64,000 nucleotides of DNA from contig JAAOMT010000400.1 in assembly GCA_016748015.1 (NCBI GenBank), positions 62,001 to 126,000 of the forward strand, read 5' to 3'. The stretch is from Geosiphon pyriformis uo1. Its lineage: Eukaryota; Fungi; Glomeromycota. This document shows positions 25,293 to 57,312 of the stretch, one piece after another; the first letter of the stretch is position 1; each line of letters starts with the position of its first letter. Under the pieces are notes generated by a model that did not search any database, had not been told where the DNA came from, and saw nothing but the letters and a program-made list of their open reading frames with translations. A program made the position numbers and the translations under genes.

Positions 25293-26384
25293 TGTTATGG
25301 ATAAACTTGGTGGAGATGAGAAATTGTAATGTTTGGTGCTCTCAATTATTGATGATGCGTCTTCCGCATAATTCTGTTGGCTTAGTCTTGATTATTAGTC
25401 TCTAAAGGTCTATTTCTGGATGTGATTTTACCCATTGAGTTCTTTGGTTATAAGACACAGAGTTTGTCTTTCATCAATTACAACATTTTCAGTAAATATA
25501 AGCTTTTTTCTCCAAGTTAACAAGCACAGTCGTTAGGATCTGGTGTTGTCTTTTCACCCTTCTAATAAGCTAACAAGATAATGTTAATATCCAAAACTTA
25601 GAGGGAGTTTCTTTCTTTTACCAGACTATCATAAAGTCTATTCTCAGACAGTCAATTTTACTATGTTGCTGCTTTACAAAAAAATAAGAAAGAAAAAGAA
25701 AAGAAAAGAAAGAAAAGATAAATTAGTATCATCAATTGCCATGATCAAGAGCAATTGGTCCAAATTGTTAATAGTTCGAGGTGGTTATGCTAAGAGCATC
25801 TGTCCTAAAATGAAGGTATGAGGCAAGGGTTAATTCACATAAATTTCATGAAGTTTGAGAACATGAATTCATGATTCTGATTTTTTTAATAATTGGTTTA
25901 TTTCAGAAGATGAAATAGAGAAGATAATAAATAATAAAGGGGTATGGATATTTGATTCTTGTCTAGAAGTTTGTATCTATCTGTCTGTTTTTCTAACTTC
26001 TATAACTACTTGTTTTTATACATTCTTTTGGTTTTACAAGATTGCTTTCAATTGTCTTGCTATTATTAGCTATTGCTTTGTTATTTCTGTTATTGCTTTG
26101 TTTTTCTACATTATTGCTAGTTATCCTATATTATAACACATTATCTGATGTTATTACATGTTATTCTGTATTATCTTGTATTATAACACGTTATTCTATG
26201 TTATAATCCGTTTATCCAATGTTATTGCATGCTATTCTGTGTTATCCTGCATTATAACATGTTATCCTACATTATAACACATTATCCAATGTTATTGTGC
26301 ACTATTTTGTGTTATGTCATGTTTTGGTTACATTTTGGTTACGTTTTTTCATAACTTTGGATCAGTTTTTCTACTCGGATAACA
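25293..26384 (-). repeat. 5' LTR of A
   Basis: Adjacent to the PBS; matches 10303-11410. Confidence 0.95.
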
Positions 26385-32030: not shown

Positions 32031-33993
32031 TTGGTTTAAAATAAAAATAACAAAAAAAGCTTTTTTGTCTTGTCAATCCTCTGCCCATGACAAGAGCAAA
32101 AAAAAAAAAAATTTTCTGTCAAAAGTTATAGCGTTTTTTTTTTTTTAATTTTCCCTTTCCCTCCTTTCTTCATCAGTTATTTTTTCAGGTACTCCTATTT
32201 TTGTCATTATGAAACCTGTGGGCATGCCTACTGGTAGTTTTGGTGCTGGTTTGACTGGTTTGAAGACCTGTCTGAATACAAAAAAGAAGCATGTAGACAC
32301 CGTCTACTCCTGTGGTGCATTCTATAAGAAGCCGAAAGTGCCAGTAACTGGTGGTGTTGTGGATTCTTCTGCTGGTCTTTTGAGCCTCGAAGATATTGGT
32401 GTTGTCAGTGTCAAATCTGTGATATCCTGGGAAAGCAATATTGGCAGTATTGCAAGTAGTGTTAGTGGGCTTTCTGATGTTGAAAATATGAAAAATACAG
32501 TTGCTGAGGAAACGAGTTATACAGAGTCAGACAATTCAGCAAATGACAAAAACATAAATGAAACAACTCCAAAAAAGACTTGTATATATATGTATGTATT
32601 GGGCCAACCCCCCAAAGCACCTTTGTTTAATAACGTGAGTGACAATGATTTGGTCTTGGAACTTCCATCTCCTAAATTCAATGGGTCCAATCAGTTGCCA
32701 CCACTGGGATTACGTGTGTCGGAGAAACGTAATTTTGATTTGGCTAAGTCATTTGTGCTTGATATTGAGCTCTCTGCAGTGCCTGAAAAAACTATTAGTG
32801 ATAAGATAATTTCTATCAAAAGGATTTTCTATCATGTGGATGGTTTTGGGGGAGCTTCAACTCTCTTAAAATTCTCAGAGATTATTAGGTCATTTTTTAT
32901 ATCTGAATCAAGTTTGAGGAAGGCTAAGGAGTTGGCTGTTAATAAGAAAATCATGGTAAACAATGATGTCAGAAAAGTAAGTGGCCATTCAGATCAGAAA
33001 AATATTGTCAAGAAGATTCTGATTGATCTTCCCAAATTGGCTGTAAAATCAGTTTTCTCTAAATTTGGTAAAATTGTGTCAATCAAGATGCAATTGATTG
33101 GTCTTTGACAAAAGGCATTAGTGGAGTTTGAATCACCTAAAGTAGCTAATCTAGTTGCTTCCAAGTAGTCTGTTCTTATGGAAAAGAATTTGGTTTATGT
33201 GGCATTGGCTGTGAGTGATAAACAATCCTAGGTGTTATTATGGGATGGTCTTCTTGTTATATTTAATTGCCAATATCCTGTTTTACTTGCAATCAGTCTT
33301 TCATGAGTTCCTCAATTCTATTTGTGTAATAATGTCACTGTTATACTGAAGACTTTTTTTTTAATGTCACGATGTAAGTTATTTCTTAATTCTTGATTGT
33401 TGTGTGTGTTTATGTACTTCTTCTCAGAGGCTGAACTGAAATCTACCCACTGTTTGGAGTCTTTTCTGAGGCTATCCTTGTAATTGTCTGATGTGTTTCT
33501 CTAATCTAGAAACACAGAATGTTAATGGCCTTTAGCGCTTTTCTTAATTTTTACAATAAAGCTTTTATCAATTAGTAACAACATAAATAATCTTGATCAA
33601 GGATTATTCTTCCAAGGGATTCAGCTGATGAATAATAGTTTTATTCAATAAATAATACAAGTAAGTTTCTTAATACTTTGGATTGTGATAATTTAGTTTT
33701 AAATATTTTTTTTCATTTCTTTTTGATTTAAAGGTTTCTTGGGATATTTAATTTGAAAGTATGATTTAAAGTGGAGTTTGTTGGATAAAATTGGATCTAT
33801 TGCTTGATAAGTTATGATTTTTATTACTTGATTGTCTTTTCTCAATATTAAAGCTACTGTATATATACATGTTTGTAGTTCTACAAGAAAACACATTGTA
33901 ATACTTTCTTTTTGATATTTTAACCTGGTGTTTGCTGCTATCACCAGTTGGTGTTGGCTGCTATTGTGAACTGGTGCTTGTCACTATTGAGAT

Positions 33994-34181
33994 NNNNNNN
34001 NNNNNNNNNNNNNNNNNNNNNNNNNNNNNNNNNNNNNNNNNNNNNNNNNNNNNNNNNNNNNNNNNNNNNNNNNNNNNNNNNNNNNNNNNNNNNNNNNNNN
34101 NNNNNNNNNNNNNNNNNNNNNNNNNNNNNNNNNNNNNNNNNNNNNNNNNNNNNNNNNNNNNNNNNNNNNNNNNNNNNNNNN
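33994..34181. other. Assembly gap (N run) removing the PPT, the ORF3 end and part of the 3' LTR of D
   Basis: Run of N. Confidence 1.
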
Positions 34182-34783
34182 GAGTTGGTAAGTTGTCTAA
34201 TACTGTTGGTTGTTATTATGTTTATGATTGGGTCCAACAATAGTTTGTGACAGTTTTCAAATGCTTTGAAAATTCTGTAAACTGTTTTTGAATGGAATGT
34301 AGTGTTGGTTTTTCCAATGAAAGATTTTAATAGTTGGATAGTTGTTTTGTCAAACACTCTAGTTGAGTCTTTTGAGTATAATGTTTGTATGTTCAAGTGC
34401 TTTCCTAGTTAATAATAACAGTAATTAATTGGAAATTTCATTTTCAAGTTGCTAAATGTGTCTGGTATTAATTCACTTATTTTTATTTCTTCTATTATTA
34501 ATGTATTGCCCAATGCTATCTCTAATTTTTCAATAACTTTGCTGATAAATTTGTTGTTATATTTGGTAATATTATATGGTTCAAAATTATGTTCTTTTCT
34601 TGTTTTTGGATTTTCTATTGTTTTTTTTATGTATGTTATTTTGGAGCTATTAACTGTGATTTCCAGATTGAATTTTAATTATTGTAAGCTTTCAACTAAT
34701 TGTTGAGTTATATTGTTGATGTTTTCTGGAATAAGTATCATTGTTTTAATTTTGACTGCTATTTTGGAATCTTTTGCATGCAT
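34182..34783 (-). pseudogene. ORF3 of D
   Basis: NLEITVNSSKITY..FPINYCYY*LGKHLNIQTLYSKDSTRVFDKTTIQLLKSFIGK. Confidence 0.8.
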
Positions 34784-34825
34784 TTTTATAGTTGTTAAAT
34801 CATTTTTGCTGTGATCTAAGATTAA

Positions 34826-36205
34826 TTATCTTTTTGAATAATGTTCAATTAAAACTATTGGTTCTAAATCTCGTGGAATTTGTTCTGGTAGAATTAAAAA
34901 TAATTGTGTTCTAATTCTGGGTGTCTTTGTTGTTATTACTGGTTTACTGTAATAGAATTTCAGCCAGTTACCATGTGCTGCTTTTTTTAATATTTTATCA
35001 TCTAGTCTTAACTTGTATGCTCCATTTTCAAGTATTTCGTGAATATAAAATGGTCCATCTCACTTGTAATCAAATTTTCCACTCCATTGTTTTTCCATTT
35101 TTGTACAATGCAACAATACTTTATCTCCAATTTTGTAGCTAATTATATTATCTGGTAACTGGTTATCATGTCTTACTTTTTGTTGTTTTTGTGATTGTTC
35201 AATATTTTGTGCTGCTTTTTTTCTTTTGTTTTCTAAAGTTCCTATTAATTTGTATGTTCTTCTAAGTAGTGTTTCTTGGAATGTTGCTTCCATGATAGTG
35301 TCACTTGGATAAGTTGGAATAGTAAGTTCAATTGGTAATGTGGCTTTTCTTCCATAAACTAGTTCAAATGGTGTGAATTGTGTAGTATCTTGTTTTACTG
35401 TTCTATATACTAGTAGTACTGCTGGTATGAACAAATCCCATTCTTTTTCATGTTCATTACTAATTTTTGCCAGTGATTTGCATAATGTGTGATTAAATCT
35501 TTTAACTAATCTATTTGTTTGAGGGTGGTATAGTGATGACAGTGGTCGCTTGATTCCAAATTTTTGGCTAAGTTCTTTTAAGATGCTGTTTACAAAGTGT
35601 GTGCCTTGATCTTATAGCAATTCTTGTAGACATCTATGCTGGCAAATTAAGTCTTTATGTATGAATTGAGCTATAGAAATAGCATCAGCTGTTTTAATAG
35701 CTCTAGCTTTTGGCCATTTGGTGAGATAGTCCATGGCTACTGCAATATAATGGTTGTTTCTTATTGTTATTGGTAAGAGTCTAACTAAATCAATTCCAAT
35801 TCTGTCAAATGGCTGTTCAACTTTTATTGGTCTTAATAATTCCATTTTTTTTGCTCCTCTTCTTTGTTGACATGAGTCACAATTTCTTATGTATTGGATT
35901 ATGTCTGAACTCATTTTTGGCCAATAGTAATAGCTAGTTGCACGTTAGATGGTTGCTGTTTTTCCAAAGTGGCCTGAATAAATATCTGAGTGCATGTTAA
36001 ATAAGATAGTTTTTTTTTCATCTATGGTTATAACTCTTAATAGATTATCTGAATTTTGTTAATTCTGGTAATAAAGTATGTAATTTTGGATGAAATAGTG
36101 GTTTGCTAATTTTTGGAGCTTAATTAGCTCTTTTACTGGCATTTTTTTGTCTATTTGTAGTGTTTCCAAGTATTGGCTGAGGTTTTTGTAAAGGTGGTTG
36201 TTCAT
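34826..36205 (-). pseudogene. Integrase of D (separate ORF)
   Basis: MNNHLY..HSDIYSGHF..CDSCQ; RIGIDL; DQGTHF; TPFELVYGR; GPFYI. Confidence 0.92.
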
Positions 36206-39200
36206 TGTTGTTATGGCAGATGGGTTGGTGATTTTTATGTGTGTTTCATTCTTGACAAACAGTTAGCATTAGCATTTTTGGTACCTTTTTTGTATTTGAT
36301 AATATAATTGTATGGTGCTAATGTTTGTGACCATCTGGCATATTTTCTTTTTAGCATTTTCTTATTATTTAACCAGATTAGACTTTTATGATCTGTGGTA
36401 ATCTCAAAGGGTTGGTACTGTAAATATGTGTCAAAGTGAACACAACTCCAGACTACTGCTAAGCATTCAAGTTCATGTGCTGCATAGTTTTGTTCTGCTG
36501 TACTGAGACTTCTGCTGGCATAAGCGATTACACGTTTTCTTCTATTATTATCTTTTTGTGACAGAATGGCTCCAAGTCCAGTTCCAGAGGCATCTGTGGC
36601 CAAAATGAATTTCTTGTTGAAATTCAGATAGATTATTATTGGTGATTCAATAAGCTTTTGTCTAAGGTACTCAAAAGCTTTTTGTTGTGCTTCAGTCCAT
36701 TCAAATTTCACATTTTTGGATAATAGGTAATTAAGGGGTTTGGCAATGTTTGAAAAGTTTTCTACAAAGTGGCAGTAGTAAGATGCAAGTCCTAAAAAGC
36801 TTCTAACTTCTGAAATGTTTTGAGGTACTGGAAAATTTTTCACTTTGTCTATTTTTGATGGATCTGGTTTTATTTCATTTTTTCCAACTACGTGTCCTAA
36901 AAATGCTAGCTCATTTTTCCCAAAGAAACATTTTTTTAGATTTAGTTTAAGTCCAGCATGTCTCAATCTCTCAAAAACTTGTTGTAAATGTTGGAGATGA
37001 TCTATGAATTTTGACAAGAAAACATTTGTATCATCAAGTAGACAACAACGGATTGTCACAGGATTTCAGAGTAAATTATGTCCATTAGTCTTTGGAATGT
37101 TGCAGGGGCATTTGTTAATCCAAATAGCGTTACATTAAACTCATAATTGCCATTTTGTGTTGTGAATACTGTTTTATGTCTGTTCTTTGGGTTCATTTCT
37201 ACTTGCCAGTACCCATTGGTCAAGTCCAGTATAGAAAACCATTTTGCTCCTCCAAAACATCAAAGATTTTATCAATTAACAGTATTGGATATGAGTCTTT
37301 GGTTGTTTTGCTGTTTAGTTTGCAATAGTTAATGCAAAATCTAATTTTTCTGTTCTTTTTTCTTACTAAAACAACTGGTGAGAACCATGGGCTCATTAAT
37401 AATTGTATTATTCCTTTTTTCAACATGCTTTGGACTTCTTCTCTAATAAAATTATGCTCCATTGGTGGGACATGGTAAGCATGTTGTTTTTCAGATCTGG
37501 TGTCTCCAGTGAGGATTTGGTGTTAAACCAAGTTGGTTCTTCCAAATTCACCATTTAATAAAAATATATTAGAGTATTTTAAAATTAATGCTTTTAATTG
37601 TTGCTGTTGGTCAGGATCCATTGTTCCAATGTTTAATTTGGCCAATTCTTCTGGCTTAAATTGATAGCATTTTAACAGTTGTTGCCAATTTATTAAAGTG
37701 AGTTTACAGTAAAGGGCGATTTCTGAGAAATTTAGAATTTTTTGTGGTGTTGACACATTTTCTAGTTCTGTTCTAAGGTATCTAATGATGGTATCTTCCA
37801 GAATGTAGACAGGTTCTTCTATGGTGTTTGCAATAAAAATTTTTATCTATTGAGCTTTATCAGCTAGAATAAAAAGGTTAGTAAGTCCTATGAGAAACTG
37901 TTGACAAGTTTTTGGATAGGGCTCAAATATTAGGTCTTTTTCTTTAATTGTTCTTTTTATTCTTATTTCTGATTTTCCATATGGTAGGAGTATGATGAAC
38001 CACTCATTTTTAATTACTTTGCCTTTTTCTTCTATTGTTTCAGCAAAATTCACTTCAATTTCTTTTCTTGTTAATCTGAAACCAAAAGTTCTTCTCATTG
38101 TTTGTGACAATTCCTCACAATTATTTTATTGGCACAAATTTCCCAATTTTTACCAATGGTAAAAAAATTGCTTGTGCAATTTTTTTCTTAGATTCAATGG
38201 TATAAGGCTTTTCTGAATTGTTCTGTAGCAAAACCATCAAATTTCCAGTGTATCCAAAGTCAATTACTTCTTCTTGAATGCTTATTCCTTTTTTCACAAG
38301 GCTTGATTGTGATGCCATTTGAACCATTATTTCTAGCAGAATTTCAACCGCTATTTTTAAGTTGATTTTGGTGATACTCTTGAGTGGTAATGTTGTGGAT
38401 TGGTCTTCTGGATAATGTAGATCAAATCTGGTGTCAGTTGGATAGGCTCTTTCAGGTATTATTCCTAAGTGCCTATTGTCAAAGTATTAAATATTGATCA
38501 CCTGTTCTAGGTCAATATAGGCTACAAATTTTTCTGACTTGGGACTGTCAGGTAAGTCTTGTTGATTTATTGATTGATTTTAAGATTGCTGATTCTCAAT
38601 TTCCATTTTTCTTTCTAAGTCTCTTTTGTCTCAATACTCTTTACAGCACTGATTTTGGCACGGGATAAGACAGTTTTTGCAGAGATAAGTGTTGATTTGG
38701 GTGAGGTATTGTTCTTGCTCTTGTTGAGTAGAGCATAGTTGTTGGTAATAGTTCTGGAATTTGTCCACTGGGTCGAACATATTGTAGTTAGTGACTTCGT
38801 CGGCTACTTCGGCTGACTCTTTCCAGCGTCATATTTTTTTGGCGGTTCCTCCTCTTACTTTGGCTTGTGTGGTGTTGTACAACTCATTCTCATTGTGTGG
38901 GTAGTGCTGTAGTCTTTTTAACACTCTGTTGAACACTGCTTTAAATGGCATTCCTCCTCTTACCCAATCACAGATGAGGATTGTGTATTGGCAAGTTGCA
39001 TCACATGTTCCTCCTCTGTTTGGTATGTCGTTCCAGTTACACCCTCTTAGTAATAGTTCTCCACAAGCAAGACATGGTTCCTCATCCCATTTTCTGTGTC
39101 TTTTTGAGTAACCATATTTTTTTTGTTATAACAGTTATAATAGTAGTGGATGGGGTTTTTTGGGTCTTTGTCTGGTGTGCTGCATGCAGTCATAGACGAG

Positions 39201-42200
39201 AGTTTTTTCTTGCAAACTTAGCATTTTAGCTTTGGTCTGCGTCGCTGGTGGTTTCTTTGTGGACTTACCTGGTTCCATTTGGATCTTTCTTCGCTGGTCC
39301 ACGTTGGTATAGCTGGTAGTCCTGTTCTTTGGTCATCAGCCCAAAAGAGCTGATAGGTTTTAATGGCTGGTAGTGCTGGATTTTCTTCAAATTCAAAGGT
39401 AGGTCTTTGGTTGGTGCTGGGTTTTTGGAAGTGGTCACAGGTGGCTGGAATTCTGGCCTGGTGGCCATTATAATTGATCAGAAGCTCTTAGGTGGTCTAG
39501 TCTAGAGTGGTGTTGGCTTTTGTTAGCCAGTCATTCTCTACTAACGCTTAATATTGTGTAGTATTCATTACTAATACTTTTGTAGGTATTACTCTGCTGT
39601 TAATTTCAAAAGAGAATAAGTTGATTTCGCCATGAAGCAGCTTTGTACTTTCATCAGCTGTTATGATTTGGAACATCACAGCACAATCAACTTTAAAACC
39701 TAGTTGGTTTATTAGTTGAAGCATTACAATGCTTCTAGTGGATCTGCTGTCTAAGATAAGTTTGATTGGGATATTGTTTACAGTGGCTTCTGTATATATA
39801 GCAGTGATTGGACATTTTTTGTTCAATGCTGCTCCACTGAACATAGCCTTGTTTTTCTCTAATTCAAAAGGAAAAATAGCTGCGAGACTACTATCTTCGG
39901 TGGTAACTGCTGGTAGTATTGTCTGGCTCAATTTGTTGGAGAAATTTTTGGTTTTGTTTATGTTTCTACCATTATTGTTTCCGATGATTGGATTTTCCAG
40001 TATATTAAGATAAGTTTGTTGATAATTTTGGTAGTTTGGATTGGTTTGTTAATTGGTTCCAGCATGGTTTGAATTCCTTTAAACCAATGCGTTCTGGTTC
40101 CATATGAGCTGATTTTGGGCCTTGGAATGCCAATATGAGTTGGTTATCATGGGCTGTTGCTGGTAAGTTTCTTGATTTTGATATGTGGTGAGATATTGGT
40201 GTGGTATTAATATATACTGGTTTCTGGACATTTGGGATGGTGCATAGTAATTATTTTCACATGCTTCTTATATCATTCACATTTGACATTAACTAATCAA
40301 ATGTCTTACACATTTGCTAAAATAGCAGGTGCACATTTCTGTTCTGAATTTCTGACACAACGAGCAATTATTTTGACTGTTGCTAACTTCCTGGCTGCGT
40401 CTTTGAGGTGGTTGGTATGTATTTCTTCTCGGATCCAGGATTAGGTAACTTTCTATTTTCTTAGAGAGTTCCTCCCCTAATTGTGTTACTCTTTTCTCTA
40501 ATGTTTCTGTCTTATTTTCCTTCATTACCATGTTAACCATTTGACTATAGTTAGCTTCTTTCTCAGCTGATTCAAGGACTCTGGCGAGTGTAACGGCTTC
40601 TGGTAAGGAATTAGGGTGGGCAGTGCATACTTTTCCTAAAATACTGCTTTTTAATCCTCTAATAAACTGATTTAAAACCTGAGGATCAGTGTAGTATCCT
40701 TGTTCAATTGCTTCAATTTGACGGCAAATTCAATTGAATCAAGCAAGGTATTGGATAACAGTTTCAACAGTATTTTGCTTAATAGTATTGAATTTGTTCT
40801 GTAGTTGGATTATGGCATTTGGGTCGCTAAAATACTCCAGGAGTGCATTTTTAAATTTGGTGAAGCTTGTGAGTTTTGTTTCTAGGCTTTGATATCATGA
40901 GTTAGCTGTGCCTTTTAGGAAGAAAGGTAATGTTTGAATTGCTCTTTGGTCATTCTAGTTATTTGCCTGGATGGTTTTTTGTGCTTTTTTGAGCCACATG
41001 TGTACGTTCATTTTTTCTTCCTCTCCTGAGAAATCTGTTAGTCTTGCAATATATGGTGTGGCCATTTCGTTACCATTTTCTGCTGGTGGGCTTATTGGTC
41101 TAAGAGAAGGTGGGATGATATTTCCTTGAGCGTTCTTGAAGGTGGCTTCCTTTATATCTGGTTCTTCCTCTTGATCACAAGTTTCTTGGTTTTTGGACTG
41201 GCTGCTTGTTCTAGTGACCAGTCTTGTGATTGTTTTTTTGCTGGTCTCTTTTTCAGATTCCAATTCAGACTTCTCTTTACAGTTTTCAAACTTCGTTCCG
41301 AATTTTGGCTGAAAAAGAGGGTTTTAAAATAGTGATGAATATCCTTCTGTAATTGGTATGTCTCTCCAGTTACGTTGTTTAATTTTATCAGTATAACTAA
41401 GAGTTCTTAGTGTTTGTGGAGTTGATATTAATGATGATGCAGCTCCTAATAGAATTTGTATCTTATTTTCTGGTGAAAAATGGTATGATTTATCTTCTGG
41501 TGAATAAATATGTTGTTTTTTTATTGATTGAGTAATAGTTTTCTTTGGTTTTTGAGCAGGTGTTCCTAGTTTTTGCTGGTTACTTTCCTAATTAGTTTCT
41601 GAATTTTTTTTGGTTTTGTTGGCACGTTTCCTAGTGTTTTCTGTGGATATTAGAAAATTTTCGTTGGTGTATTGCTCAATTTCTCGATGGATTTTGACAA
41701 TAGTTGTGGTGTTATAGGTGATTATTTCTGCTGTTGATGTAAATAACAAACCTGTAACTTGGTGCTCAAAAGCTACTTTCGTTGATGCTGTTCTAAAGGT
41801 ATTGTATCTGAAAGTTTTGATGAAGTCCTTTGTATAATGAACAGAGATTCAATAGTGTCGATAGTAGATGTATCTTTCTAAAAGTTTTCCCAATTTCTTT
41901 CTCAGTGTGGTGGCTGGATTTAGTCTGGCAGTCATGCCCTTCTGGTAAACTATCCGATAATATATAAAATCCTACCCTTATTTCTGGGTCTTTTACCAGG
42001 CTATCCTTGACATTAATAACTCAGTGTTTAATCTTTTAATCAATTAATATACACAACAGTCAAATCAAATAAAATAAAGAAAAGAAATAAAAGAAAATAA
42101 AGAAAGAAAAGAAATAAGTCCGGGTGGTTTGGCAGATTAGTATTCTGTCAATAGCCATGATCAAGAGCTATTGTTCCAGTGTGGTTAAGTATCAATTACT

Positions 42201-42551
42201 ATCAACATGAAGTGTTGATAGTGGAGAGTGGATTGAAATATGTAATAATTATTTATTTGATGATTTTGTTTCTTGGCTAAGAATTCTGTGATATCGATTC
42301 TGTTTTTTCTGTTTCTAATACTACTGCTATATATACATAATTGGGATTCTTCAATTCTTCAATTCTTCACGACAGGAATCCTGGAATTTCTGGAATCCTG
42401 CGATTCCTTTGAAAGGAATCCTGGAATTCTGGAATCCTGTAATTTCTAAGAGGAATTCTGAAATTCCACATTTACTATGCTTACTTTTGATTGGCTAATA
42501 GTTATGCTAATATATTTCCTATATTTCTATGAGTAATATTATTCTCTCCTT

Positions 42552-43211
42552 TTAATATTGAGCTCTGTTGAAATCCAACTCATGTAATTCCCCCTCTTGC
42601 AGTATTTCCTGGATTTCGTTTTTGAGAATTACTTGTGTTATTTGGGTCTGTAATTCTTCAAATTAAGCATTGGTGATTTTTCCCCATTGATTACTGGTAA
42701 CCATATCCATTGCTTTGTTGAACAATATTTCTGGTTTATTCTAAAATGCTGTGTGTATTTGGTATATGGCTCAGGCTTGTGTGGATAAGTTGTTCTTTCC
42801 CACAAAATGTTCTAATTGTTGTAGTATTCTTTTGTCAAATAATCGCTTTGTTTTATCTGTATATAGATTCTGGATATTTACGTGTTGTCCCAAGTAAAAA
42901 TAACAATAGTTTTGTGGAAATTGTTGTATCCACCAATTCCAAGTTTCTTTAATCAACTCTTGATATAGTGACTCTTTTGTCAATTCTTTTATTGCTAATT
43001 TTACTTTTACCATGATTTTGTTCACCATATTTTCAGTTTTTTTTGGTGTTTTGAGTTGCAATGTCTTTTTAGTATCTTGATATTGAATAGTTTGTTGATT
43101 GATTGTAATCTCCATTTCCTGGTGTTGAATTAATTGAAAGAGTTGTTGTGCTAGTGTGTGAATGTTGTCTGTAATTTCCATTTTTCTGATATTTCTTGTC
43201 ACATCTACCAT
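42552..43211 (-). pseudogene. ORF3 of C (~220 codons, unknown function)
   Basis: MVDVTRN..FPQNYCYFYLGQHVNIQNLY..LQQLEHFVGK; reads through premature stops to LDFNRAQY* at the PPT. Confidence 0.82.
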
Positions 43212-43235
43212 GTCTTTATATATTCTTTTAATTGA

Positions 43236-44618
43236 TCAATTTAACGTGTTGTTGTTGATAATAATGATTGGTTCCAGATCTCGTAGAATCTCATCTGATC
43301 AGACTAGTATTCTCTGTACTCCTAATTGTAAAATATTATTGGTAAATGGTAGTGTGATGTCGCGATATGACTTCAGTCGATCTCTATGTGCTGCTTTGGT
43401 TAAAATTTTGTTATCCAATCTTAATTTGTAAGCTCCATTTCCTAGAATTTCTTCTATGTGAAATGGTCTGTTCCATTTGGGATCGAATTTTCCACTCCAT
43501 TGTTTTTCCGCTTTGGTATAATGTAGTAATACTTTGTCTCCAATCTTGAATTTAACTGGTTTGTCTGGTAGTTAACTATTGTGTCTTTTTTTCTGTTTTT
43601 TTTGTGACTTTTGAATATTATCAGCTGCTCTTCTTCGTTTGTTTTCCAATGTTTTCATTAAGTTATATGTTCTTCTCAGCAATGTTTCTTGAAAATTTTC
43701 TTCTGTTATTGGTTCAGCTGGATATGTATTAATTTCTCTCTCTACTGATAATATTGCTGTTCTCTTATATACTAATTCAAATAGTATTGCTTGTGTAGTA
43801 TCTTGTTTTATTGTTCAATAAGCAAATAGTACTGATGGTATAAACAAATCCCAATTGTTCTGGTTTTCTTGGCTGAGCTTAGCTATTACTTTACACAGTG
43901 TTCTATTGAATTTTTTTACTAGTCCGTTGGTTTGTGGATGGTATGGTGATGATAATGGTCTCTTGATTCTGAATCTTTAGCTCAATTCTGTTAATGTTCT
44001 GTTTACAAAATGAGTTCCTTGGTCTGATAATAATTCTTTTGGACATCCATGTCGACAAATCAAATCCTAATGAACAAATTTGACAACGGATTCTGCATTC
44101 GCTCTTTGAATTGTTTTTGCCTCTAGCCATTTAGTGAGATAATCCATAGCTACCGTTATGTATCTGTTTCCTCTGCTGGTGATTGTTAATGGTCCGACTC
44201 AATCAATTCCAATACGGTTAAATGGTTGTCCCACTTTGATTGGTCTTAATGGTTTACTGGGTCTTGTTTCTCCTCTTCACTGACAAGCATCACAATTTTA
44301 AACATATTGAATGATGTCTGGGTACATTGATGACCAATAGTATCTCTTTCTGGTTCTTTCCATGGTTGCTTCTTTGTGAAAATATCCTGCTGTTGGATTT
44401 GAGTGCATGTTGAATAATATTGTCTTTTTTTCTGGCTCCGTAATTACTCTAGTTGGTTGATCTGAATCTCTTCTATTTTTTCAATAAAGTATATTTTGGT
44501 GAGTAATAAAATATTTTGATTGTTGTTTGATACTCTTTTGTTCTGTTTAAGATAAATTCTCCTTGAACTGTTGAGTGTTTATATAATGCTGCAATTGTTG
44601 ATATTTTTGTATGTTCAT
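43236..44618 (-). pseudogene. Integrase of C (own ATG after the pol stop)
   Basis: MNIQKYQ..HSNPTAG..CDACQ; RIGID; LLSDQGTHF; PYHPQTNG; RDLEPIII. Confidence 0.92.
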
Positions 44619-44681
44619 TTTTTGTTGTATTTTTCTGTTGGTATTGTTCTGGTTTTGTTATGTTTTTGGGTTGAAATGTTC

Positions 44682-47600
44682 TTAGATTTGCCTCATTTAT
44701 GATAAACTGTCTGCATTTCCATTGTCTTTTCTTTTTTTATAATATATAGTATACTTATATGGTGTGAGTGCCATTTTCTATTTTGACTGTTTTCCATCTC
44801 CAAATTCTTGTTTTTGAAGTGATGTTAATCCTTTGTGATCTGTGTATACCTCAAACTTCTGGCTTAAATATTCTTTCCATTTCATGACTGACCAGTATAT
44901 TGCTAAGTGTTCTTTTTCCAGTGTTCCATAGTTCTTTTCAGCTGGTGTTAAACCTCTGCTGACATATGCCACTGGATGTTCTCTGCCATCTGGTCCTCTC
45001 TGAGATAGTACTGTTCCTAATGCCTGGCCAGATGCATCCATGGTGATGATAAATGGTTTGCTGTGATCTAGATAGATCAGTACTAGAGCTTGTATAAGTT
45101 TTCTTTTTAGAATATCAAAAGCTTCTTGTTAACTTTTAGTCCATTCATATTTTGTATCTTTGTTATGTAGTTGGTTGAGTGGCTGTGCTATCTTGGAAAA
45201 GTTCTTGATAAAACATTGATAGTAGCTGGTGAATCCCAAGAATAATTTCAGTTCTGTCATATTAGTCAGCACTGGAAAGTTCTTTACTATCTCTATTTTC
45301 TCCGGATCTGTTTTGATGCCATCTTTGCTGACTATGTGTTCCAAGAATTTTAGTTCTGTCTTGCCAAAGAAGCACTTTGTTGCATTTAACTTTAATCCTG
45401 CTCTTCTTAGTCTTTCGAACACTTGTTGAAAATGATGAAGATGATCATCAAATGTTTTTGAGAATACATTGGTGTTATCCAAGTATACAACTACTGATTT
45501 CCACAATAAGCCAGTATAAACAATTTTCATTAGCCATTGGAAAATTGCTGGGGCATTGGTTAAACCGAATAGCATCACTTTAAATTCGAAATTCTCTTCT
45601 CTAGTAGTAAATGCCGTCTTCTCTTTGTCAGCTAAATTCATGGCTACTTGTCAGTAACCACTGTTCAAATCTAATGTTGAGAACCATTTGTTCCCACCAA
45701 AAGCGTCGAATAATTCCTGTATTCGTGGAGTTGGGTAACTGTCTCCACGAGTTACATCATTGAGTTTTCTGTAGTCTACACAAAACTGGATTTTTCCATT
45801 CTTCTTATGGACAAGTACCACTGGTGATGACCATGGGCTCATTAATGATTGAATTAGCCCATTATTAAGCATTCTGTTTATCTCTTGACAAATGATCTTG
45901 TGGCTGGCTGGCAGCACTCTGTATGCTCTTTGTTTAATTGGCATTGCATCTCCAGTCTTGATCTGATGCTGGATAATGTCAGTTCGGCCAAACTCATTTT
46001 CACTGGCAAAGATGTCATTGAAATTGTTGAGTAACATCTTGAGCTGCATACATTGGAGTGGATCTAAGTTTCCCATGTTCATTTGTTCCAATTGTTCTGG
46101 TTGAAGCAAATAACATTTGTCTCGTCCATAGATTGTTTGTGATGTGATGTCAACATATCCACAAAGTTGTGGAAAGTTTGGAATGGGGTTTGGTGGTTGG
46201 TCTTCTATTTCTGTGGTTAAATATCTGATGGTGGTTCCTTCTGGTATGTTGATGACATTGCCAGTGTTGTTGTAAATGGGAATTTTTATGCTGCTATAGC
46301 TTTTGGCTGGTATGTAGAGATTGATCAACCCAATCTCTCCTGATTCATAAAGGTTTGCTTCAGCTTCAAAAATTTGTCCTTGCTCCTTTTCTTTCCTTCC
46401 TATTGCTAACATGTACTGGCTATATGGTGGAATGAAAATAGCTTGACTGGTTAAGATAATTTCTCCTTGGCCAACAATTTCTTCCTCTGCCATATTAACT
46501 GATATCTCTATTCTACTTGTTGATTCAAATCCTTGTATTCCTCTTGCTGTTATTTCTAATTCCTTCCTTTTTCCCACTAACACTAACTAAGCTACTCTAA
46601 CCAGAGGCAGAAATATTGCCTGTGCTATCTTTTTGTTGGGCTCTATTATATAGGCCTTTTCTGAGTCATTTTGTAGTATGGTGATGATATTTTCTACATA
46701 TCCCGCATCAATTATTCCTCCTCTTATATTGATCCCTCTTTTCACTAAACTACTTCTAAATGCTAATTGAACCATTGTTGTTGCCGGAATTTCTAGTGCT
46801 ATTTTCAGATCAATGCAGGTGCATGAATGCAGTTCCAATTTGATGGCATCTTTTTCTGGATATCTCAGATCAAACCCTACATCCATATTATGCATGCGTT
46901 CTGGCATAATACCTTCTCCATTGTCACTATATCATTTTAACTCTTGTTTCTTGGAGAGATTTGGTAATGCAATGTATTGTTCATAGTTTAAATCAGAGTT
47001 TGACTCTGAGTTGGAATTAGTATCATTGTTGTCACCATATTGAACAGAGCTGGAACCAGTGTTTTTGTTATTGTTGTTGTCGGAGTTTGAATCAGGATTG
47101 AAAATCAATTCCGATTCTGATGCACATCTGCTGATTGGTTCTTCCTCTTCAGAGATTGTATAAATCATGCGTGGTGGTGGATTGTAAATGAGGTTACATT
47201 CATCACAATACTGGAAATCACAGAGAATTAGGCAGTGTTGACATAGTCGAGCATTCAACTGCTCTAACTATTGTTCTTGTTCTTCCCTTGTGGGTGCTAA
47301 TTCTTGGTAGTGTTCATAGAATTGTTTCAGATCTAGGAGATTTATGATGAGTTCTGTGTCCCAGTCAAGCTCTACAGATTTTGGTGAATTGTCTTTGATT
47401 GTTTTTATTTTCTCAGACGACGCCTTTTCAATTTTGGCAAGTGCCATTTGCCAAATTTCATTGTCATCATGGGACAACTGTCCAGTTGCTGTACAGCTTT
47501 TCTTTAGGCTGCTTCTATTGGAGTTCCTTTCCTTACCCAGTCGCTTATTAGAATTGTGTATTGACACGATATGTCACACGTTCCTCCACATCCCTTCATT

Positions 47601-50600
47601 CAGGAGAGTTTTTCCACAGGCTATACATAACGTATTATCTTATTTTCCTATTTGTTTTGGTCTTCCAAAACGTTTGATATGGCATGTGTGGTAATAGAAC
47701 TTGGTTGCCGTCTGATATTCTTTGTTGTCCCCACAGCATGTGTTCATTGATGACAATTTCTTGCCACAATCAATGCATATCAGTTTGGGTCGGCAAGAGA
47801 TCAATGGTTGTTGTTGACCGTAGGTGTATGGGATATAAGTGTTGTTGACTTGAGTGTTTTCTTCCTTCCTCTCTTTTCCTTTTCCCTTTTCTTCTTTGTT
47901 TTTTTCTCATTCCCAGCTTGAAGTCAGTTCACTTTCGTCATTGTCAGTCCAGATCAAGTCATTGGTTTCCCAGGTAAGTTCTTCTTTTTGTTTTCCTTTT
48001 TCATTGTCGTTGTCATCCCAGGGGAGTATTGGTGGCAGTTCGTTGTGCCCTTTATCAGCCCACAACACTTGGTAGGCTTCCCAAGTAGGTTTCTTTTTCT
48101 TCTCCTCCAGTTTGATCAATAGTTTCTTTCTTGGAGGAGTCTTGAAGTGGCCACATGTGGCCGGTACACGTATGTATTGGCCCTGATATGTTAGCTGAAG
48201 TTCCTGGATGTTCCAGTTTAACGTCATGTTGACTTTAGATAGCCAGTTATTACCAACAAGAGCTTGGTATTGAGTGACTTCTATTACTAGAACTTTAATG
48301 GGAGTTACGATGCCATGGACTTCAAAAGAGAAGTCGTCAATTTTGCCGATTGGAGTTTTGATTGCTCCATCAGCTGTGATGATTCTGGTGCTGGCAGCTC
48401 AATCAACTCGGTGACCTAATTGTTCCATGAGTTGCTGTGTGATAATACTGTCTGCTGAACTGCTGTTAAGGATCAATTTGATGGATTGTCTCTCGACTTT
48501 GGCGTCAGTGTACATTACGGTGATTGGTTTGGCTTCAAGAGTGGCTCCACTAAATAATGGCATTGTAGCTGTTTCCTCAAGTTTGAATGGGAAGATAGCA
48601 GCCAAGAACTTGTCTTCGGTAATGGTAGCAAGTGGGATATTACTAGTGAGTGGTTGTTTTTGGGTGAATGCCAGGTTATTGGTTGAGGCATCTTCTGGGG
48701 TAACCAGGAGACTTAAATAGTTCTGGGAATTTGGGTTTTGGGTTTGACTGGTACCCAAATTCTGCTGGTGTAATCCAGATGATTGCTGTAAAGAACTGAG
48801 AATTGGTTGATGGACTACCATTGCCGATCTCCAGCTCTGTTGAGTTATTTTTGGTCTTTGGGTTCTGTTGGGTGGTAAGCTTTGGGGCGGTGTTTGGATT
48901 TGTTGGAGTTGATAGATTATTTGTGGCTGCAGTTGTTGATAAATCACTTGTGGCTGTGGTTGATAGATTGGAGCTTGGTACACCGGAGACTGATAGATGG
49001 ATGACTGCATTACTGGTAGGTAAGCGGATTGGTTTTGATTTGGGTATTGATTCGGAGTTTGGAACTGGTAATTGGGGTTTTGATATTGATTTCCTGATCA
49101 TTGGTTATTTAAATACTGGTGACAGTCAATTTGGATGTGTCCTTGTTTACCACAATAGTGGCAGATATGTGTTTCTTGTTGCCACTATTGATTGGTCACT
49201 GAAAATAGACGTGGCTAATTTTGGGCACGATTAGAGTTTCCTTGATTATTGCATCATTGTGAAGGCTGATAAATGGTGTGATTGTCAGCTAAATATTCTT
49301 CCAATCTCTTATTAATTGATGCATTAAACTTCTCCAATTTGAAATCCAATTCAGATGATCCGTTCATTACTAGATTAACAGCTTGGGTGTGGTTAGCCTC
49401 TGGCTCAGTAGATTCAAAATTTTTGGCATGTGTAATTGTGTCTTGAAGAGTACCTGGATGCAATAGACGTACATGTTGCAAAATGCTGCTGCACAGGCCA
49501 CAGATAAACTGATTGAGTATCTGTGGTGCTGTGAAATAGTTGGTGTCAATTGCTTGAATTTGGCATAGGTTTCGATAGAAGCGTCCCAGGTAAGTGGTGA
49601 CTGCTTCAGTTTCTCCTTGTTTTATGGTGGTGAATGTATTGACTAGGCAATTGATACTGTTATTGTTGCTGAAGTATCTTAGGAATTCCACTTTGAAGGC
49701 ATTAAAATCTTGTGGTTTATTAATCAAGCTCTGATACCATAAATTGGCAGTATCCTTGAGAAAGTAGGGAATGGCTTGCATTGCTCGAGCATTATTCCAT
49801 CCGTTGGCTGCAATGGCCTTTTTTATATCATTCAGCCATACTTGAGTGTCATCCTCTTCACCAATAAAGTTGTCAAGTTTTGCGATTGGTGCATAGGCCA
49901 TTGGATCTAAGTTAGGTGGTTGGAGTGATAGTTAAAGTGGCTGCTGTATGGGTTCGGCTATGGGATTAATCAGCAGTTGATCGATGATGATTACTGGAGG
50001 TAAGTTTTGCTGATTAATTAATTTGGGGTTTGGATTGTTCTGCCTTTAATGATTTGGAGTTTCGATTTCTGAATTTTCTAGATCTGGATTTTGCTGAGTT
50101 TGAAAATTTGGGATTTCAACTTTCAGGTTTTCAGTGATCAGGTGCTGGTAAGTGAATTCTTGATCCTCTGATTCTTCTTCCTCTTTTTCTGATTCTGCTG
50201 CTTCCCATGGATCAAAGATTCTGAAATTTGGTGAAGGTGGTAGTGATTGAAGTCCTGATGGGGTTGATGATTGCGAATTAAATCCTTCAAAGTATTCGTC
50301 ATATGGTCCTAACAATTCTGTTTTTCTTTGTCTACTTTGGAATGAGAATTGTCCAAATGCTGATGTCATGGTTGATGGGAATATGTCTGTTGATGATATG
50401 TTGATGGCACTTCCAAATGTATAGTGATAGGATGGGTTGCTTGGAGATTCGACTCTGTTTTTCTTCCAAGCAGGTGGCTGTATTTTTCTGGGTGTTACTG
50501 CTGGTGTTTGTAATTTTCCCTTGTCTTTACTAGTGTATGTAATTGGATATCTTTGTTGAGTGTAATGTTCAATTTTTTTGTTGATCTTAGTGATAATGGA

Positions 50601-50843
50601 TGTGAAATTATGATTTGTTGGTAGGTTGGTGTTTTGAATTAATTCCTTATAAAAAGTTTCTCTTGCTGATTCAGTATTCACTGGTGTTCCTAATAAAAAG
50701 AAAATCTTTTCATTGACGTAGAAATTGAAGGCTGATTCGGCAGATATATGATTGTGGTTTAATCCCAAGTATTGACAATAATGTTGAAATAAGGATTTTG
50801 CGAATCCTAAATGGTTTGCTCCTATATTTTCTGATTCTGCCAC
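44682..50843 (-). pseudogene. gag-PR-ZnF-dUTPase-RT-RNaseH of C, one frame (~2050 codons) with point-mutation stops
   Basis: Listed ORF fragments from 50843 to 45041 are all in one frame; CHYCGKQGHIQIDC; dUTPase GFDL, RSS, GGIIDAGY, IAQ, RGIQGFES; RT and RH motifs. Confidence 0.94.
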
Positions 50844-50885
50844 TTTTAGTTTGGTGTTGTCAGTGCTGGTTCTCTGTAGGATTAT

Positions 50886-50903
50886 ACCTCACAGGGAGCA
50901 CCA
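50886..50903 (-). promoter_or_regulatory. Primer-binding site TGGTGCTCCCTGTGAGGT (shared by A, B and C)
   Basis: Starts 2 nt after the 5' LTR; complementary to a tRNA end CCUCACAGGGAGCA-CCA, resembling elongator tRNA-Met or tRNA-Ile(UAU) ends. Identity not certain. Confidence 0.85.
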
Positions 50904-53854
50904 AATGTTACAGGTGATTATTTCTGCTGTTGATGTAAATAACAAACCCATAACTTGGTGCTCAAAAGCTACTTTCATTGATGCTGTTCTGAAGATGTTG
51001 TATTTGAAGGTTTTGATGGAGTCCTTTGTATAATAGACAGAGATTCAATAGTGTTGATAGTAAATGTATCTTTCCAAAAGTTTTCCCAATTTCTTTCTCA
51101 GTGTGGTGGCTGGATTTAGTCTGGCAGTCATGCCCTTCTGGTAAGCTATCCAATAATATATAAAATCCTACCCTTATTTCTGGGTCTTTTACCAGGCTAT
51201 CCTTGACGTTAATAACTCAGTGTTTAATTTTTTAATCAATTAGTATACACAACAGTCAAATCAAATAAAATAAAGAAAAGAAATAAAAGAAAATAAAGAA
51301 AGAAAAGAAATAAGTCCGGGTGGTTTGGCAGATTAGTATTCTGTCAATAGCTGTGATCAAGAGCTATTGTTCTAGTGTGGTTAAGTATCAATTACTATCA
51401 ACATGAAGTGTTGATAGTGGAGAGTGGATTGAGATATGTAATAATTATTTATTTGATGATTTTGTTTCTTGGCTAAGAATTCTGTGGTATCGATTCTGTC
51501 TTTTCTGTTTCTAACACTACTGCTATATATACATAATTGGAATTTCTCAATTTCTCGATTCTTCACAACAGGAATCCTGGAATTTCTGGAATTCTGCAAT
51601 TCCTTTAAGAGGAATTCTGGAATTCTGGAATCCTGCAATTCCTGAGAAGAATTCTGGAATTCCACATTTACTACACTTATTTCTGATTGGCTAATAGTTA
51701 TGCTAATATATTTCTTATATTTTTATGAGTAACAGCGACTATTACTGCTATTTCTTTTGTAGTGTATTGTGATAATTCTCTATACAATCCAAGTTTTGCG
51801 TCGTGTGGTTTTTCTTCCTTTTCTATATGATAATTTATTCTGGCATTAATATAATAAGTGAGAGCAGATTTTGCTAGACAACACTTTTCTGGTAATCCAA
51901 GATCACTTTGATTTTGTGTGTAAATAGCATAGCAGAATTCAAGAACAGTAAGGTTAGGGGGTTTTGTTACCACTTTTGTCTCTTCCTTTTTAACAATGAA
52001 TTATTGCTAATTATTATTTCCTTTTTGATTTTTTTTTCTCGTAGGGTTTACCAAATGTTACAGGATGGTCTTCTTGTTATATTTAATTGCTGATATCCCA
52101 TTTTACTTGCAATCAGTCTTTCGTGAGTTCCTTAATTCTATTTGTGTGATAATGTCACTGTTATACTAAAGGCTTTCTTTTTAATGTCAAATGTAAGTTA
52201 TTCCTCAATTCCTGATTGTTGTGTGTATTTATGTACTCTTTCTCAGAGGCTGAACTGAAATTTACCCACTGTTTGGAGTCTTCTCTGAGGCTATCCTTGC
52301 AATTGCCTGATGTGTTTTTTTAATCTAGAAACACAGAATGTTAATGGTCTTTAGTGCTTTTCTTAATTCTTACAATAAAGCTTTTATCAATTAGTAACAA
52401 CGTGAATAATCTTGATCAAGGATTATTCTTCCAAGGGATTCAGCTGATGAATGATAGTTTCATTCAATAAATAATACAAGTAAGTTTCTTAATACTTTGG
52501 GTTGTGATAATTTAGTTTTAAATATTCTTTTTCATTTCTTTTTGATTTAAAGGTTTCTTGGGATATTTAATTTGAAAGTATGATTTAAAGTGGAGTTTGT
52601 TGGATAAAATTGGATCTATTGCTTAATAAATTATGATTTTTATTACTTGATTGTCTTTTCTCAATATTAAAGCTACTGTATATATACATGTTTGTAGTTC
52701 TACAAGAAAACACATTGTAATACTTTTTTTTTGATATTTTAACCTGGTGTTTGCTGCTATCATCAGTTGGTGTTGGCTGCTATTGTGAACTGGTGCTTGT
52801 CACTATTGTGAAATTATGTTTGCTACTATGTTAATCATTACCTTTCTAAGATTATTACTGTGCTATATTATGATTGAATAGTTTGTATTATTTTTATGAT
52901 TCTTTTGCTAAATTCTTAAACTGTAACAGTGTTTAGGAATTAACATAGGGCTTTGCTATATACTTTATCTGTTGGCACTATTGTTCATGATTTGTCTGGT
53001 TTGCTTGAATCATATGATGGGAAAACTTGTTTTATTGGTTGCAATCCTAATTCTTATGTCCATGACAGATGTGCTGTAGTTTGTTTTGTTGATGAAGCAT
53101 CCAAGTTGGCTGTAATTGATTCTGTTCTAGTTTTCAAGGGTGTGAGCTTGCAGTGAACTGGTCTTTCTTTGGCTTGTTGTGCCAAATATGAACAATTTGG
53201 TCATGTTTCTAATGTGTATTCAATTGGTGGGAATTCTGGTGTTCATAATAAGCGGATGGTAACTCCTCAAGATTGAGTTTGATTGGCAAACATATATAAA
53301 AAGAAGTGAGTTCCAATCGTTTGCCCAGTTTCTTTTGGTGGGAAAACTTGGGCCCAAGTGGCTAAAAGTCTTTCTTCTTAAGTGGTTTCATCGGATTCTT
53401 CTGGTGTTAATATGTCTCCAGGTGCAAAACCTGTCCCATTAGTTTCAAATTCTCTTGGTGATTACTGTTTGGTTGAGCAATTGGCTTTTTTGGAATGCTC
53501 TTTGGAGCTTTTAACAGATCAGGTTTCGAATGTTTTAAAAAAATTGAGTTTCGTGGAATTGGTGCCTCTGGTGTCTGGTCTCCATGCATCTCTTATGGTT
53601 GTTGCCACTCTTGTTGCCACTAATGTAGACTTAGATATGGCTATAAATAATACAGCTGTGTTGTCTCCTCCCCCTTTGTTAGTTGTTGTTGACTTGGTTA
53701 CTGATCTTAGTTTGAGTAATTCTAAGGTTTTGACCACCAAAGTGGGTGAATTGGAATCCAAGATGGTGGCTTTGGAGCTGTCAGTTGAATCTGTTTTGGA
53801 AAAATTGAATTGTTTGTGCTCTGATCTGGGATCGTCAACTTCTCTTCTTCCCCA

Positions 53855-56800
53855 ATGAGTAACTTTGTGTGGAAATTTGTGATGTGTAATGTTCATGGTG
53901 TCAATGTCTCTGCCAAGCAGAATAATGTTATCTGTTGGCATAAAAATTCTGGAAATTTGGTTTTGATAATTACTAAAACAAAGCTGAGGTCAGGTAGCAG
54001 ACCTTGAATTAAGGATAGGTTCGATGGAATCAGAGTTTTTTCATCTGGGTTAGATAAAGGGTTTCTGGGTGCTGGGGTTGTAATTAATATGAACTCTTCT
54101 TTGGCTCATCATGTTAGTAAGATTTCTGAGGTGCCTGGTCAGCTTTTTTTAGTCAAGCTGTTATTTAAAAATAAACTTTCTGTGTCTATTTTGGGGCTTT
54201 ATGCTGAAGCATCTCTGGCTGTTCGATTTTCTCAAGCTTTTGATATCAATTCTATGATAGCAAAAGCAATCAATGAATCTTCTTTTGTGGTTCTGGGTGG
54301 CAACTTCAATAAAAATGGCTCTCAAAAGTGTGCTAGTTTCAAAAAATGTCTGGATCTTGGTTTGGTTAATTCTTTGGATGGAAGTTCTTATGTTAAAAAG
54401 TCCACATGAACTAACTCTTGGGGTGTGGCTAAGACTATCGATTTCTTGTTTATTTTTTCAAACTTGGTCAATGCTATGGTGGATTGCGAGATGTCTGATG
54501 TTGGTGAATTTTTTGATACTGACCACTGAGCTGTTTTTATGTCTGTTGGTTTGAGTGAACTTTTGGACAAATGGTTGAATTCTCTTCGCAAGCATGCAAA
54601 TAGGGATTGGTGGAAGTTCAATTTCAAAAATGCTGGTGTTGATAAGTGGAATGATTTTAAGGATGCCATGATTGCTAACACAACAATGTTCTTAAATGAA
54701 TTTGCTACTGCTTTAAGGTTCTCAGACTTGGACACATTGTGAGATGTTATTTAAAAAATTATGGTGTTTTTAGCTAATGAAGTATTCAAGAAAAAATGGT
54801 TTAAGGACAATAATTGTATCTTCACCAAGGGGTCTTTGAGATTTCACAGATTGGAACTTTTGGTTTCAAAGATTGTTAAGGCTTTTTGTGGAGGTGTTAT
54901 TGGTAGTTTTGTTTCTCTTATGAAGTGTTGGTGTTCTTTAGATGGAGCTAAGGCTTTGATTGTTCAGGATTTGGTAGACTCTGATGCATCTTTTAATTGT
55001 ATTCACTCTGCTCTCTCTGGAGCTAAGAAATTTTATTGTGCTTTGAAACTGGCGGAATCTTTGAAAGCTAAAGAGGGGAACATTAAATCTGCTATTGGCA
55101 AGAGGATGGAGAGCTTTAAGATAGATAAAGGCCATACTATCAAAAGTATGTTGGAGCGTCCTTTTCACAAAGTGGTGCTTGACCATTTGGTTGTTGATAA
55201 TGAGCTGGTTTTGAAGCCTAGTTTGGTTAAGTCTAAGGTTGATTCAGTTATGAGAAGTTGGACCCAAAGGTGTCAGACAGTTCTTGATGTTTCTGATAAT
55301 TGGTGTTAGCAGTATCGGCCCTTGGAACACATTTTTAATGGGGCTTTTTCTGGTGTGATGTGTTTAATTGATTTTGATGAATTTTTTAAGGTGGTTTTTA
55401 ATCTGTCTGATGGCAAAGCTGCTGGTCTTTTGGGTATCTCAAATGAACTTTGGAAGCATTGTGACAAATCTGTTTTGGACATGCTCTTGGTGCTTCTAAA
55501 CTGTTGCTTGTCTAATGAATCTGTTCCAAATCCTTGGAAAAAAGCCTGGGTCTCAATGATTCCCAAACCATATGAGTAAAAAGGTGTTTTGACAAATACT
55601 TATCTTATTGCTTTGATTAAAACAGCTTGTAAAATTCTCTCTAAGATCCTTTCTAATAGAATTTCCTCAGCTTGCAGTACTTTTGATGTTCTTCATGATA
55701 ACAATTTTTCGGTTTTGAAAATTACAATGACTTAGTCTCCTATTTTTGCAATTGGATCAGTTATTGAAGATGCTTTGGAGAAAGACTGAAAGCTGTGGCT
55801 GGTTTTACAGGACATGTGGAAGGCATATGATTCTGTTGGCTGGAATCATCTTAAGAAAAGTTTGGTCAGAATTAAAATGTGTAACAGATTCATTCAATTT
55901 TTTGGTAATATTCATAAGGGTTGTACCAACTGGGTCATAACAAATTTTGGTTTGACAAATGGTTATTGTGTGTATGATGGTTTGAACCAAGGTGAAGTTT
56001 TTTCCCCCCTTCTATAGTGTGTATTTTATGATCCTCTGTTGTGTAAAGTTAAGTGCCAAGAGAGTATGTGTGGATACAAGATCAATTCTCATTTTATCTC
56101 CAAGAGTGGTCATACTGAATCTTGGGCTGAATTTTCCTCATTTTTTGCTGCTGGTGCTTTTGTTAATGATACAATTTGGGTTGGTAGCAGTCGAAATGCT
56201 ACTCAACACATTTTTGATGTTGCTAGTGATTTTTTCTGAATTAATAACATTTCTATTAATAACAAAAAAACAGTGGTCATTCCTATCAATAGCAGAATCA
56301 GCAACCTATCTCTTTTTATAAGTGGCTCTCCCATCACTATTGCCAAAAAAGGGGAATCTCATTGGTATTTGGATATTTTTCTTTTGACTGAGAGTCTTTC
56401 AAAGCCTAGCTTGGCCAGGGCGCATTCGGATGTCAGATTTTTTATAAATCTGGTTCTGAAAAAAGCTGTGTCAGATAAATAGTTCTTATATTTAGTGTTA
56501 GCAGTTCTTCATTTTATTGTCAACTACAGAACACAGTTTAGCTTTATTTCTGTTGGTGTATACAACAAATGGGACACCTTGATCCATAAAGACTTGAAGC
56601 TCAAGTCTGGTCTGCCACTTGACTTTCCTAGTAATACCATTCACCACCTTTCCTTTTATGGTTTGAAATTTTTTTTGCAAATTCAGTCTAAAAGTAAGAT
56701 TGCTTCACTTGTTGACTTTGTGAACTCTGGTGGAATTTTGGGTCAATTGTTTTCTCACCAGTCTCATGATCTACAAGTTTGGTGTTGGCACCCTGTTCAT

Positions 56801-57312
56801 CCATTGGTCTCTTCTGTTCATACTCATGTCAGTGTTTCTAATAATTTTCTGGCAGACATGGTTTATATTTTTCTTGATTGTAATTTATCTCTGAGTGATC
56901 TTTTGGCTAGTTCTTTTTGGTTTCGTGATAGAACGTCCATGTCTGCTGTTCTGGGTGAGTCAAGGTTTATCAAATTTCTTCCTTCTCTTTGGCAGTATGG
57001 TATTGCATATGTGGAGTAACTTCGAGATCATCATGGTGTTGTCTTTGATTAGTATATTTTTAAGTGATGGAAAAGATTAGACTCCTGTGGCTTTGTTTCT
57101 GATTGGTTCAAATTGTCTACTGCATTTTTCAACAGTGTATCTGTCTCTTCAATTTGCCCTGTGGCTTTGTGTGGTACTGGTCCTTTGAACATTCTTGAAT
57201 TCAGTGACTATGTGTCTATTTGCGACCATCTCTCCCAAGTTGATGCTAGCGTGTTATCTGTGTACACTGATGGATTCTTGAAGGACTTTGGAACAGTCAA
57301 CTGTAGTGCCAG
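53855..57312 (+). pseudogene. LINE-b ORF2 (APE-RT-start of RNase H)
   Basis: MSNFVWKFVMCNVHG; LGGNFN; KTIDF; DTDH; QDMWKAYDSVGW; GLNQGEVFSPLL; AFVNDTIW; VYTDG. Confidence 0.9.

Follow-up and report, generated by a model that had tools for sequence, protein, structure and literature searches.

A conserved open reading frame behind pol, with a candidate role as LTR activator, in Ty3/Gypsy elements of Geosiphon pyriformis

The 64,000-nucleotide stretch of Geosiphon pyriformis contig JAAOMT010000400.1 analysed here (the window) contains five Ty3/Gypsy elements with long terminal repeats (LTRs), A to E, all on the minus strand as judged from LTR pairs. Each carries all or part of an open reading frame (ORF), ORF3, between integrase and 3' LTR, the position of env in other elements. 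The original prediction placed a conserved ORF3 in all five, and a profile search over the window finds it at exactly five places, A, B, C, D and E. Positions are those of the window, and element features lie on its minus strand.

ORF3 of element C runs from a conserved methionine at 43181 to 42552 (209 codons and a stop); with an upstream in-frame ATG at 43211 it gains ten codons (43211-42555, 219 codons). It has three premature stops, at codons 147, 157 and 183 (42771-42773, 42741-42743 and 42663-42665). ORF3 of A (11425-12159, 244 codons) has seven when the longer frame is read, and its frame differs from that of pol. ORF3 of D (34182-34741) is truncated by an N gap (33994-34181). As predicted, B (19389-19479, about 29 codons) and E (58167-58433) keep only stubs. 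These are C-terminal remnants of internal deletions; in E the deletion joins the stub to the start of integrase. The starts first proposed, 43211, 12243 and 34783, have to be moved, since alignment places the conserved methionine at 43181 in C, 12159 in A and 34741 in D. Position 12159 is ATA in the window copy, but Met in 17/17 A-type models with the start motif, and the xEITDNI motif begins with Met in 70 of 83 models.

The homology among the ORF3s of A, C and D is far above chance. Local alignments score 175-271, whereas shuffled sequences reach at most 57-62, and the sequence blocks first quoted as shared are present in all three. Intact natural copies are known for the C type (P0002, 88% identical to C), the A type (P0116, 70% identical to A) and the E type (P0129, a 64% match to the E stub); the D-type copy P0118 is 90% identical to D over 186 residues and has a false 3' end. 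P0002 is 28% identical to A (E=4e-26) and 34% to D (E=3e-27), and A is 29% identical to D (E=5e-13). A protein search with C gave 111 matches among 159 candidates, the best 84-89% identical, and searches with A, D and E gave 66 among 4550, intact natural copies included; all of the former are named G. pyriformis and all of the latter are Geosiphon. With a profile, 126 matches at E<=0.001 were obtained from 1.84 billion representatives; they bring in one more Geosiphon family (P0191, P0196) and three groups from metagenomes, and of ten proteins looked up by name seven are Geosiphon. One of these relatives, P0220, is intact; on contig L001 it follows a Gypsy pol after a 316-nt spacer. The L001 pol is 45-57% identical to the window pols, so the pol-ORF3 layout occurs outside the Geosiphon assembly. 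At least 177 Geosiphon "hypothetical protein" matches represent copies of this retrotransposon ORF3, or chimeric gene models containing them. One chimeric model, P0206, has a C-terminal segment with a "QLELYGCLGEII" block, which may represent an additional, more distant ORF3 family.

ORF3 is under purifying selection, which supports the original prediction of a lineage-specific accessory protein kept by selection. The ratio of nonsynonymous to synonymous differences per site (pN/pS) is 0.56-0.77 in all six pairs among A, C, D and E rather than near one, with bootstrap upper limits of 0.77-0.99; in reverse transcriptase (RT)/RNase H it is 0.27-0.46. Because protein-guided alignment biases pN/pS, neutral divergence was simulated to the same identity. 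The observed gap between second and third codon positions was reached in 0, 0, 3 and 18 of 400 neutral runs (C-A, C-D, C-E and A-D), and stops were 2-8 times commoner in the simulation than in ORF3. With identities of 25-43%, against 50-67% for Pol, ORF3 is constrained less tightly than Pol. No description of the protein was found in the literature searched, which did not cover the Geosiphon genome papers, their supplements or repeat databases. ORF3 is a real, conserved accessory gene, apparently so far undescribed.

On its sequence, ORF3 is an ORF separate from pol. The Pol stop of family C, by family-majority reading, is at 43236-43238, and ORF3 follows in the same frame. Among 1977 contigs of one DNA run, counting variants at 22% or more, this stop reads as another stop in 29% and as no sense codon; the ATGs at 43211 and 43181 have no variants. 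An earlier stop at 43299-43301 is private to the window copy. The SH3-like C-terminal region of integrase is at 43299-43571 (PF24626, E=8.5e-6, below the curated cut-off). The Pol stop of D (34826-34828) has the same frame and distance from DLEPI as in C. In A, and likewise in a second copy, P0128, ORF3 is out of the pol frame.

A TATA box stands shortly before ORF3 in three families. In C it is TATATAAA at 43215-43222, 41 nt before the ORF3 methionine, and it has no family variant at the same threshold; in A (12198-12205) and D (34784-34790) the distances are 46 and 49 nt. These boxes resemble the LTR TATA boxes, and the starts first proposed for C and D sit directly behind them. Together, pol and ORF3 (12,736 nt) contain only ten TATAWAW words, three of them being these boxes. 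Local shuffles put such a word in the 38-52 nt slot, which was chosen after looking, in 21, 18 and 23 of 500 cases. L001 has no TATA box at this spacing. The arrangement suggests that ORF3 is likely made from its own internal promoter.

The predicted protein is basic and helical, with 1-3 cysteines. Its N-terminal part is modelled as one helix, a hairpin and a low-confidence linker, and its core is predicted to be compact and helical, with a helix-turn-helix like that of ParB/KorB; the second helix of this motif differs among families. KorB is among the weak fold neighbours of the model, with scores that are not significant, and the match to DUF1016_N (PF17761) is weak (E=0.037 in one of eight proteins; hhalign E=0.096). 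Pfam scans of 18 + 8 ORF3 proteins gave no family at the curated cut-off and no match to a described Gypsy extra-ORF or Env family, and they list no match to the ParB/Srx CTPase N-terminal domain. Nor do they show a chromodomain; the ORF is separate from integrase and its predicted core all-helical. The original prediction also saw no signal peptide or transmembrane segment, and this agrees with a best 19-residue Kyte-Doolittle mean of 0.27-1.05 in four of four natural copies, no dedicated signal-peptide predictor having been run.

In three of the five LTR types, U3 carries a family-specific repeat array, which lies 50-300 nt ahead of the LTR TATA box. The 3' LTR of C has the array GGA[AT]T[CT]C at 42375-42452, upstream of a TATA box at 42328-42335. 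The same motif recurs in B, whose pre-TATA part is 87% identical to that of C. The 3' LTR of A has TAACA[CT]A (11051-11410). In the 3' LTR of E, CACATTGC half-sites (57957-58079) lie between the LTR start and the TATA box and are twice arranged as 19-bp palindromes, CACATTGC-N3-GCAATGTG. In all six valid rows of a shuffle test (row A5 was invalid) the top 7-mer of the A, B/C and E arrays was reached by at most 1 of 200 shuffles. The A3 downstream control was also significant, because of a simple repeat; D (two rows) and L001 were not significant. Past the TATA box the C and E LTRs are 84% identical over 494 nt, but before it they cannot be aligned. The word TTGCCCT is found in L001 three times within the LTR and twice before ORF3, and never in pol; the window families have no comparable cluster before ORF3.

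These features suggest that ORF3, made through its internal TATA promoter, likely activates the element's own LTR by binding DNA in a sequence-specific way. Joined to its description as a soluble, basic protein without a membrane segment, from a dUTPase-bearing Ty3/Gypsy lineage, this reading stands at about an even chance. The internal promoter would give a short transcript and from it the ORF3 protein, which would bind its cognate U3 repeats, a short way before the LTR TATA box, and raise full-length transcription, perhaps by keeping the LTR open against methylation. In each family protein and U3 site would diverge jointly, and copies with deletions, such as B, would be supplied in trans. 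Expression, DNA binding and the sign of the effect are what we infer here from the sequence. Among the three roles first suggested, trans-activator, silencing suppressor and targeting factor, the first has the most indirect support. More tentatively, and with the balance against it, this fungal Ty3/Gypsy lineage may have independently evolved the design of foamy viruses. An internal TATA promoter would drive a helix-turn-helix protein of ParB/KorB fold, perhaps bacterial in origin, and this protein would recognise operator arrays specific to the family in its own U3 and activate or unsilence its own family only. Each family would then be an orthogonal protein-operator pair, and this could explain the LTR expansion in Geosiphon.

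The foamy-virus Tas/BTas protein is the product of a small non-structural 3' gene with an internal promoter, and it binds the LTR and that promoter and raises transcription (PMC4929722). ORF3 is likewise small, at the 3' end of an LTR element and behind a candidate internal promoter, and in the working model would likewise bind. However, no sequence or fold link was found between the two, and Tas lies behind env in a vertebrate retrovirus, whereas ORF3 belongs to an element without env in a fungal host. The VANC anti-silencing proteins of Arabidopsis VANDAL transposons target tandem repeats that vary between related families (PMC5735166). They are also element-encoded, and the family-variable repeats of A, B/C and E are candidate ORF3 targets of a similar kind, but VANDALs are DNA transposons and no VANC-type domain was matched for ORF3 in Pfam. 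ORF3 belongs to neither family and would only work alike. Compared with proteins with a ParB/Spo0J/KorB DNA-binding domain or DUF1016_N, ORF3 has no significant score and no ParB N-terminal domain, and its context is a eukaryotic retrotransposon.

Extra sense ORFs between pol and the 3' LTR have been described as plant Tat eORFs (PMC4408406) and bdelloid ORF3s (PMC5408684). Like ORF3 they are separate, non-Env units, and dUTPase also occurs in bdelloid lineages. In the passages cited, however, they encode transmembrane/coiled-coil, GDSL, DEDDy or unknown proteins, features absent from ORF3, and the bdelloid ORF3s are described as coming from spliced messages, whereas Geosiphon ORF3 is directly preceded by a TATA box. 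Most Gypsy extra ORFs have no function assigned there (PMC4408406). If true, the activator reading would mean that a non-viral fungal LTR retrotransposon encodes a sequence-specific regulator of its own. It could then also be why 41% of the genome of G. pyriformis, a symbiont, consists of LTR elements, and it would provide a small natural set of orthogonal regulator-site pairs. Binding across families is open to a direct test, given the intact proteins found in nature, the candidate promoter and the candidate cognate sites of three families.

It is also possible, if rather doubtful, that ORF3 binds to nucleic acid or to chromatin but does not recognise the LTR, acting for instance as a cofactor of integration targeting or of the particle, and that the U3 arrays are host-factor sites. 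A basic, helical protein would suit this role, as would the lack of an array in D and L001 and a hint of targeting in the target duplications, all three measurable 4-bp pairs being derivable from N-CG-N. However, the targeting modules known from Gypsy elements are integrase fusions, while ORF3 is separate with its own TATA box. The U3 is also completely replaced between C and E while the remaining LTR is conserved, which likewise speaks against this role.

A repressor that binds its own LTR and limits copy number would have the same anatomy, and KorB, the weak fold neighbour, is an operator-binding protein. We consider this improbable, as the arrays are in an enhancer-like position upstream of the TATA box and LTR elements make up 41.2% of the genome (PMC11952901). 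Suppression of host silencing by protein or RNA contacts, without sequence-specific DNA binding, seems no more probable. Host pressure is strong (284 of 289 paired-LTR differences are transitions and CpG o/e is 0.22), and in the related Rhizophagus irregularis transposable elements are methylated and yield small RNAs (10.1101/2021.03.30.436303). However, Pfam scans gave no known suppressor domain, and this reading leaves the family-specific arrays and the helix-turn-helix-like core unexplained.

Read-through of the single family-wide stop that separates pol from an in-frame ORF3 in C and D could make ORF3 a C-terminal Pol domain, but this is very unlikely given the out-of-frame ORF3 of A, the L001 spacer, the conserved methionine and the TATA box, no search for longer fused proteins having been made. 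A reduced Env or fusogen is scarcely credible, since only the position speaks for it, against the lack of a hydrophobic segment, the few cysteines and the lack of an Env match above the Pfam cut-off or in PDB sequences (best a gp160 row, E=0.33).

The C terminus of ORF3 coincides with a conserved DNA motif and polypurine tract (PPT; 42539-42566 in C), which overlap the ORF3 stop. The predicted "DFxxAQ(Y/F)*" end is indeed present at the PPT, but it is a DNA motif and not a protein motif. A GGAGCTCAAT..TT.A.GAG-type sequence ahead of the TG of the LTR is common to L001, A, B, C and E, and it is translated as GAQY-stop in the window elements and as ELNLEEKIML in L001, that is, in different frames; families other than L001 also read it in another frame. 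It is a cis signal adjoining the PPT.

The paired LTRs, primer binding site (PBS) and PPT mark the carriers as Ty3/Gypsy LTR retrotransposons. Pfam domains across A-E are, in order, gag, protease, RT, RNase H, integrase zinc finger and SH3, and the pieces, dUTPase included, are in Gypsy order. Element A (10303-26384; 3' LTR 10303-11410) contains B (18505-24332; 3' LTR 18505-19375), and D (about 33236 to beyond 52811) contains C (41710-51734), whose 3' LTR (41710-42538) is 94% identical to its 5' LTR (50906-51734). The 3' LTR of E is at 57312-58152. The element copies in the window are dead. The LTRs were first thought largely unrelated across families, which holds for A and D only, those of B, C and E being 70-73% alike.

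The PBS of C is at 50887-50903, and those of A, B and D at 25274-25290, 23443-23459 and 52037-52053. The sequence TGGTGCTCCCTGTGAGG is common to A, B and C despite the unrelated LTR of A, and the PBS of D differs. Element B keeps gag, LTRs, PBS and PPT, and one deletion near 19475 removed dUTPase, RT, RNase H, integrase and most of ORF3. It shares the U3 motif of C and is possibly a derivative that has lost autonomy. A conserved inverted repeat, ACTATCAAC-N7-GTTGATAGT, is present in the LTRs of B, C and E about 115 nt past the TATA box (42200-42224 in C), possibly an RNA hairpin in R.

The dUTPase lies between protease and RT in A (15491-15787), D (38121-38486), C (46587-46931) and E (60064-60795). 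In A and C it is followed by a weak Spuma_A9PTase-like match (E 0.0005-0.001, below cut-off), which suggests a second protease-like domain. The 4-bp target duplications are ACAA/ATGA for A (10299-10302/26385-26388), GTGG/GCAG for B (18501-18504/24333-24336) and GTGG/GCGA for C (41706-41709/51735-51738). Their derivation from N-CG-N is through transitions, hinting at insertion at CpG-centred sites.

Fragments of non-LTR (LINE-like) elements, 66-68% alike, lie at 4758-9508 and 53382-57349 on the plus strand, the former with RT (E=0.0008) and RNase H (E=1.6e-6) matches; others are at 27850-28359 and 32149-33108. An intact Ser/Thr-rich ORF at 2164-2856 (minus strand), hydrophobic at both termini, resembles a secreted GPI-anchored host protein. 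A tandem repeat array with a 12-bp unit lies within an open frame at 730-1137.
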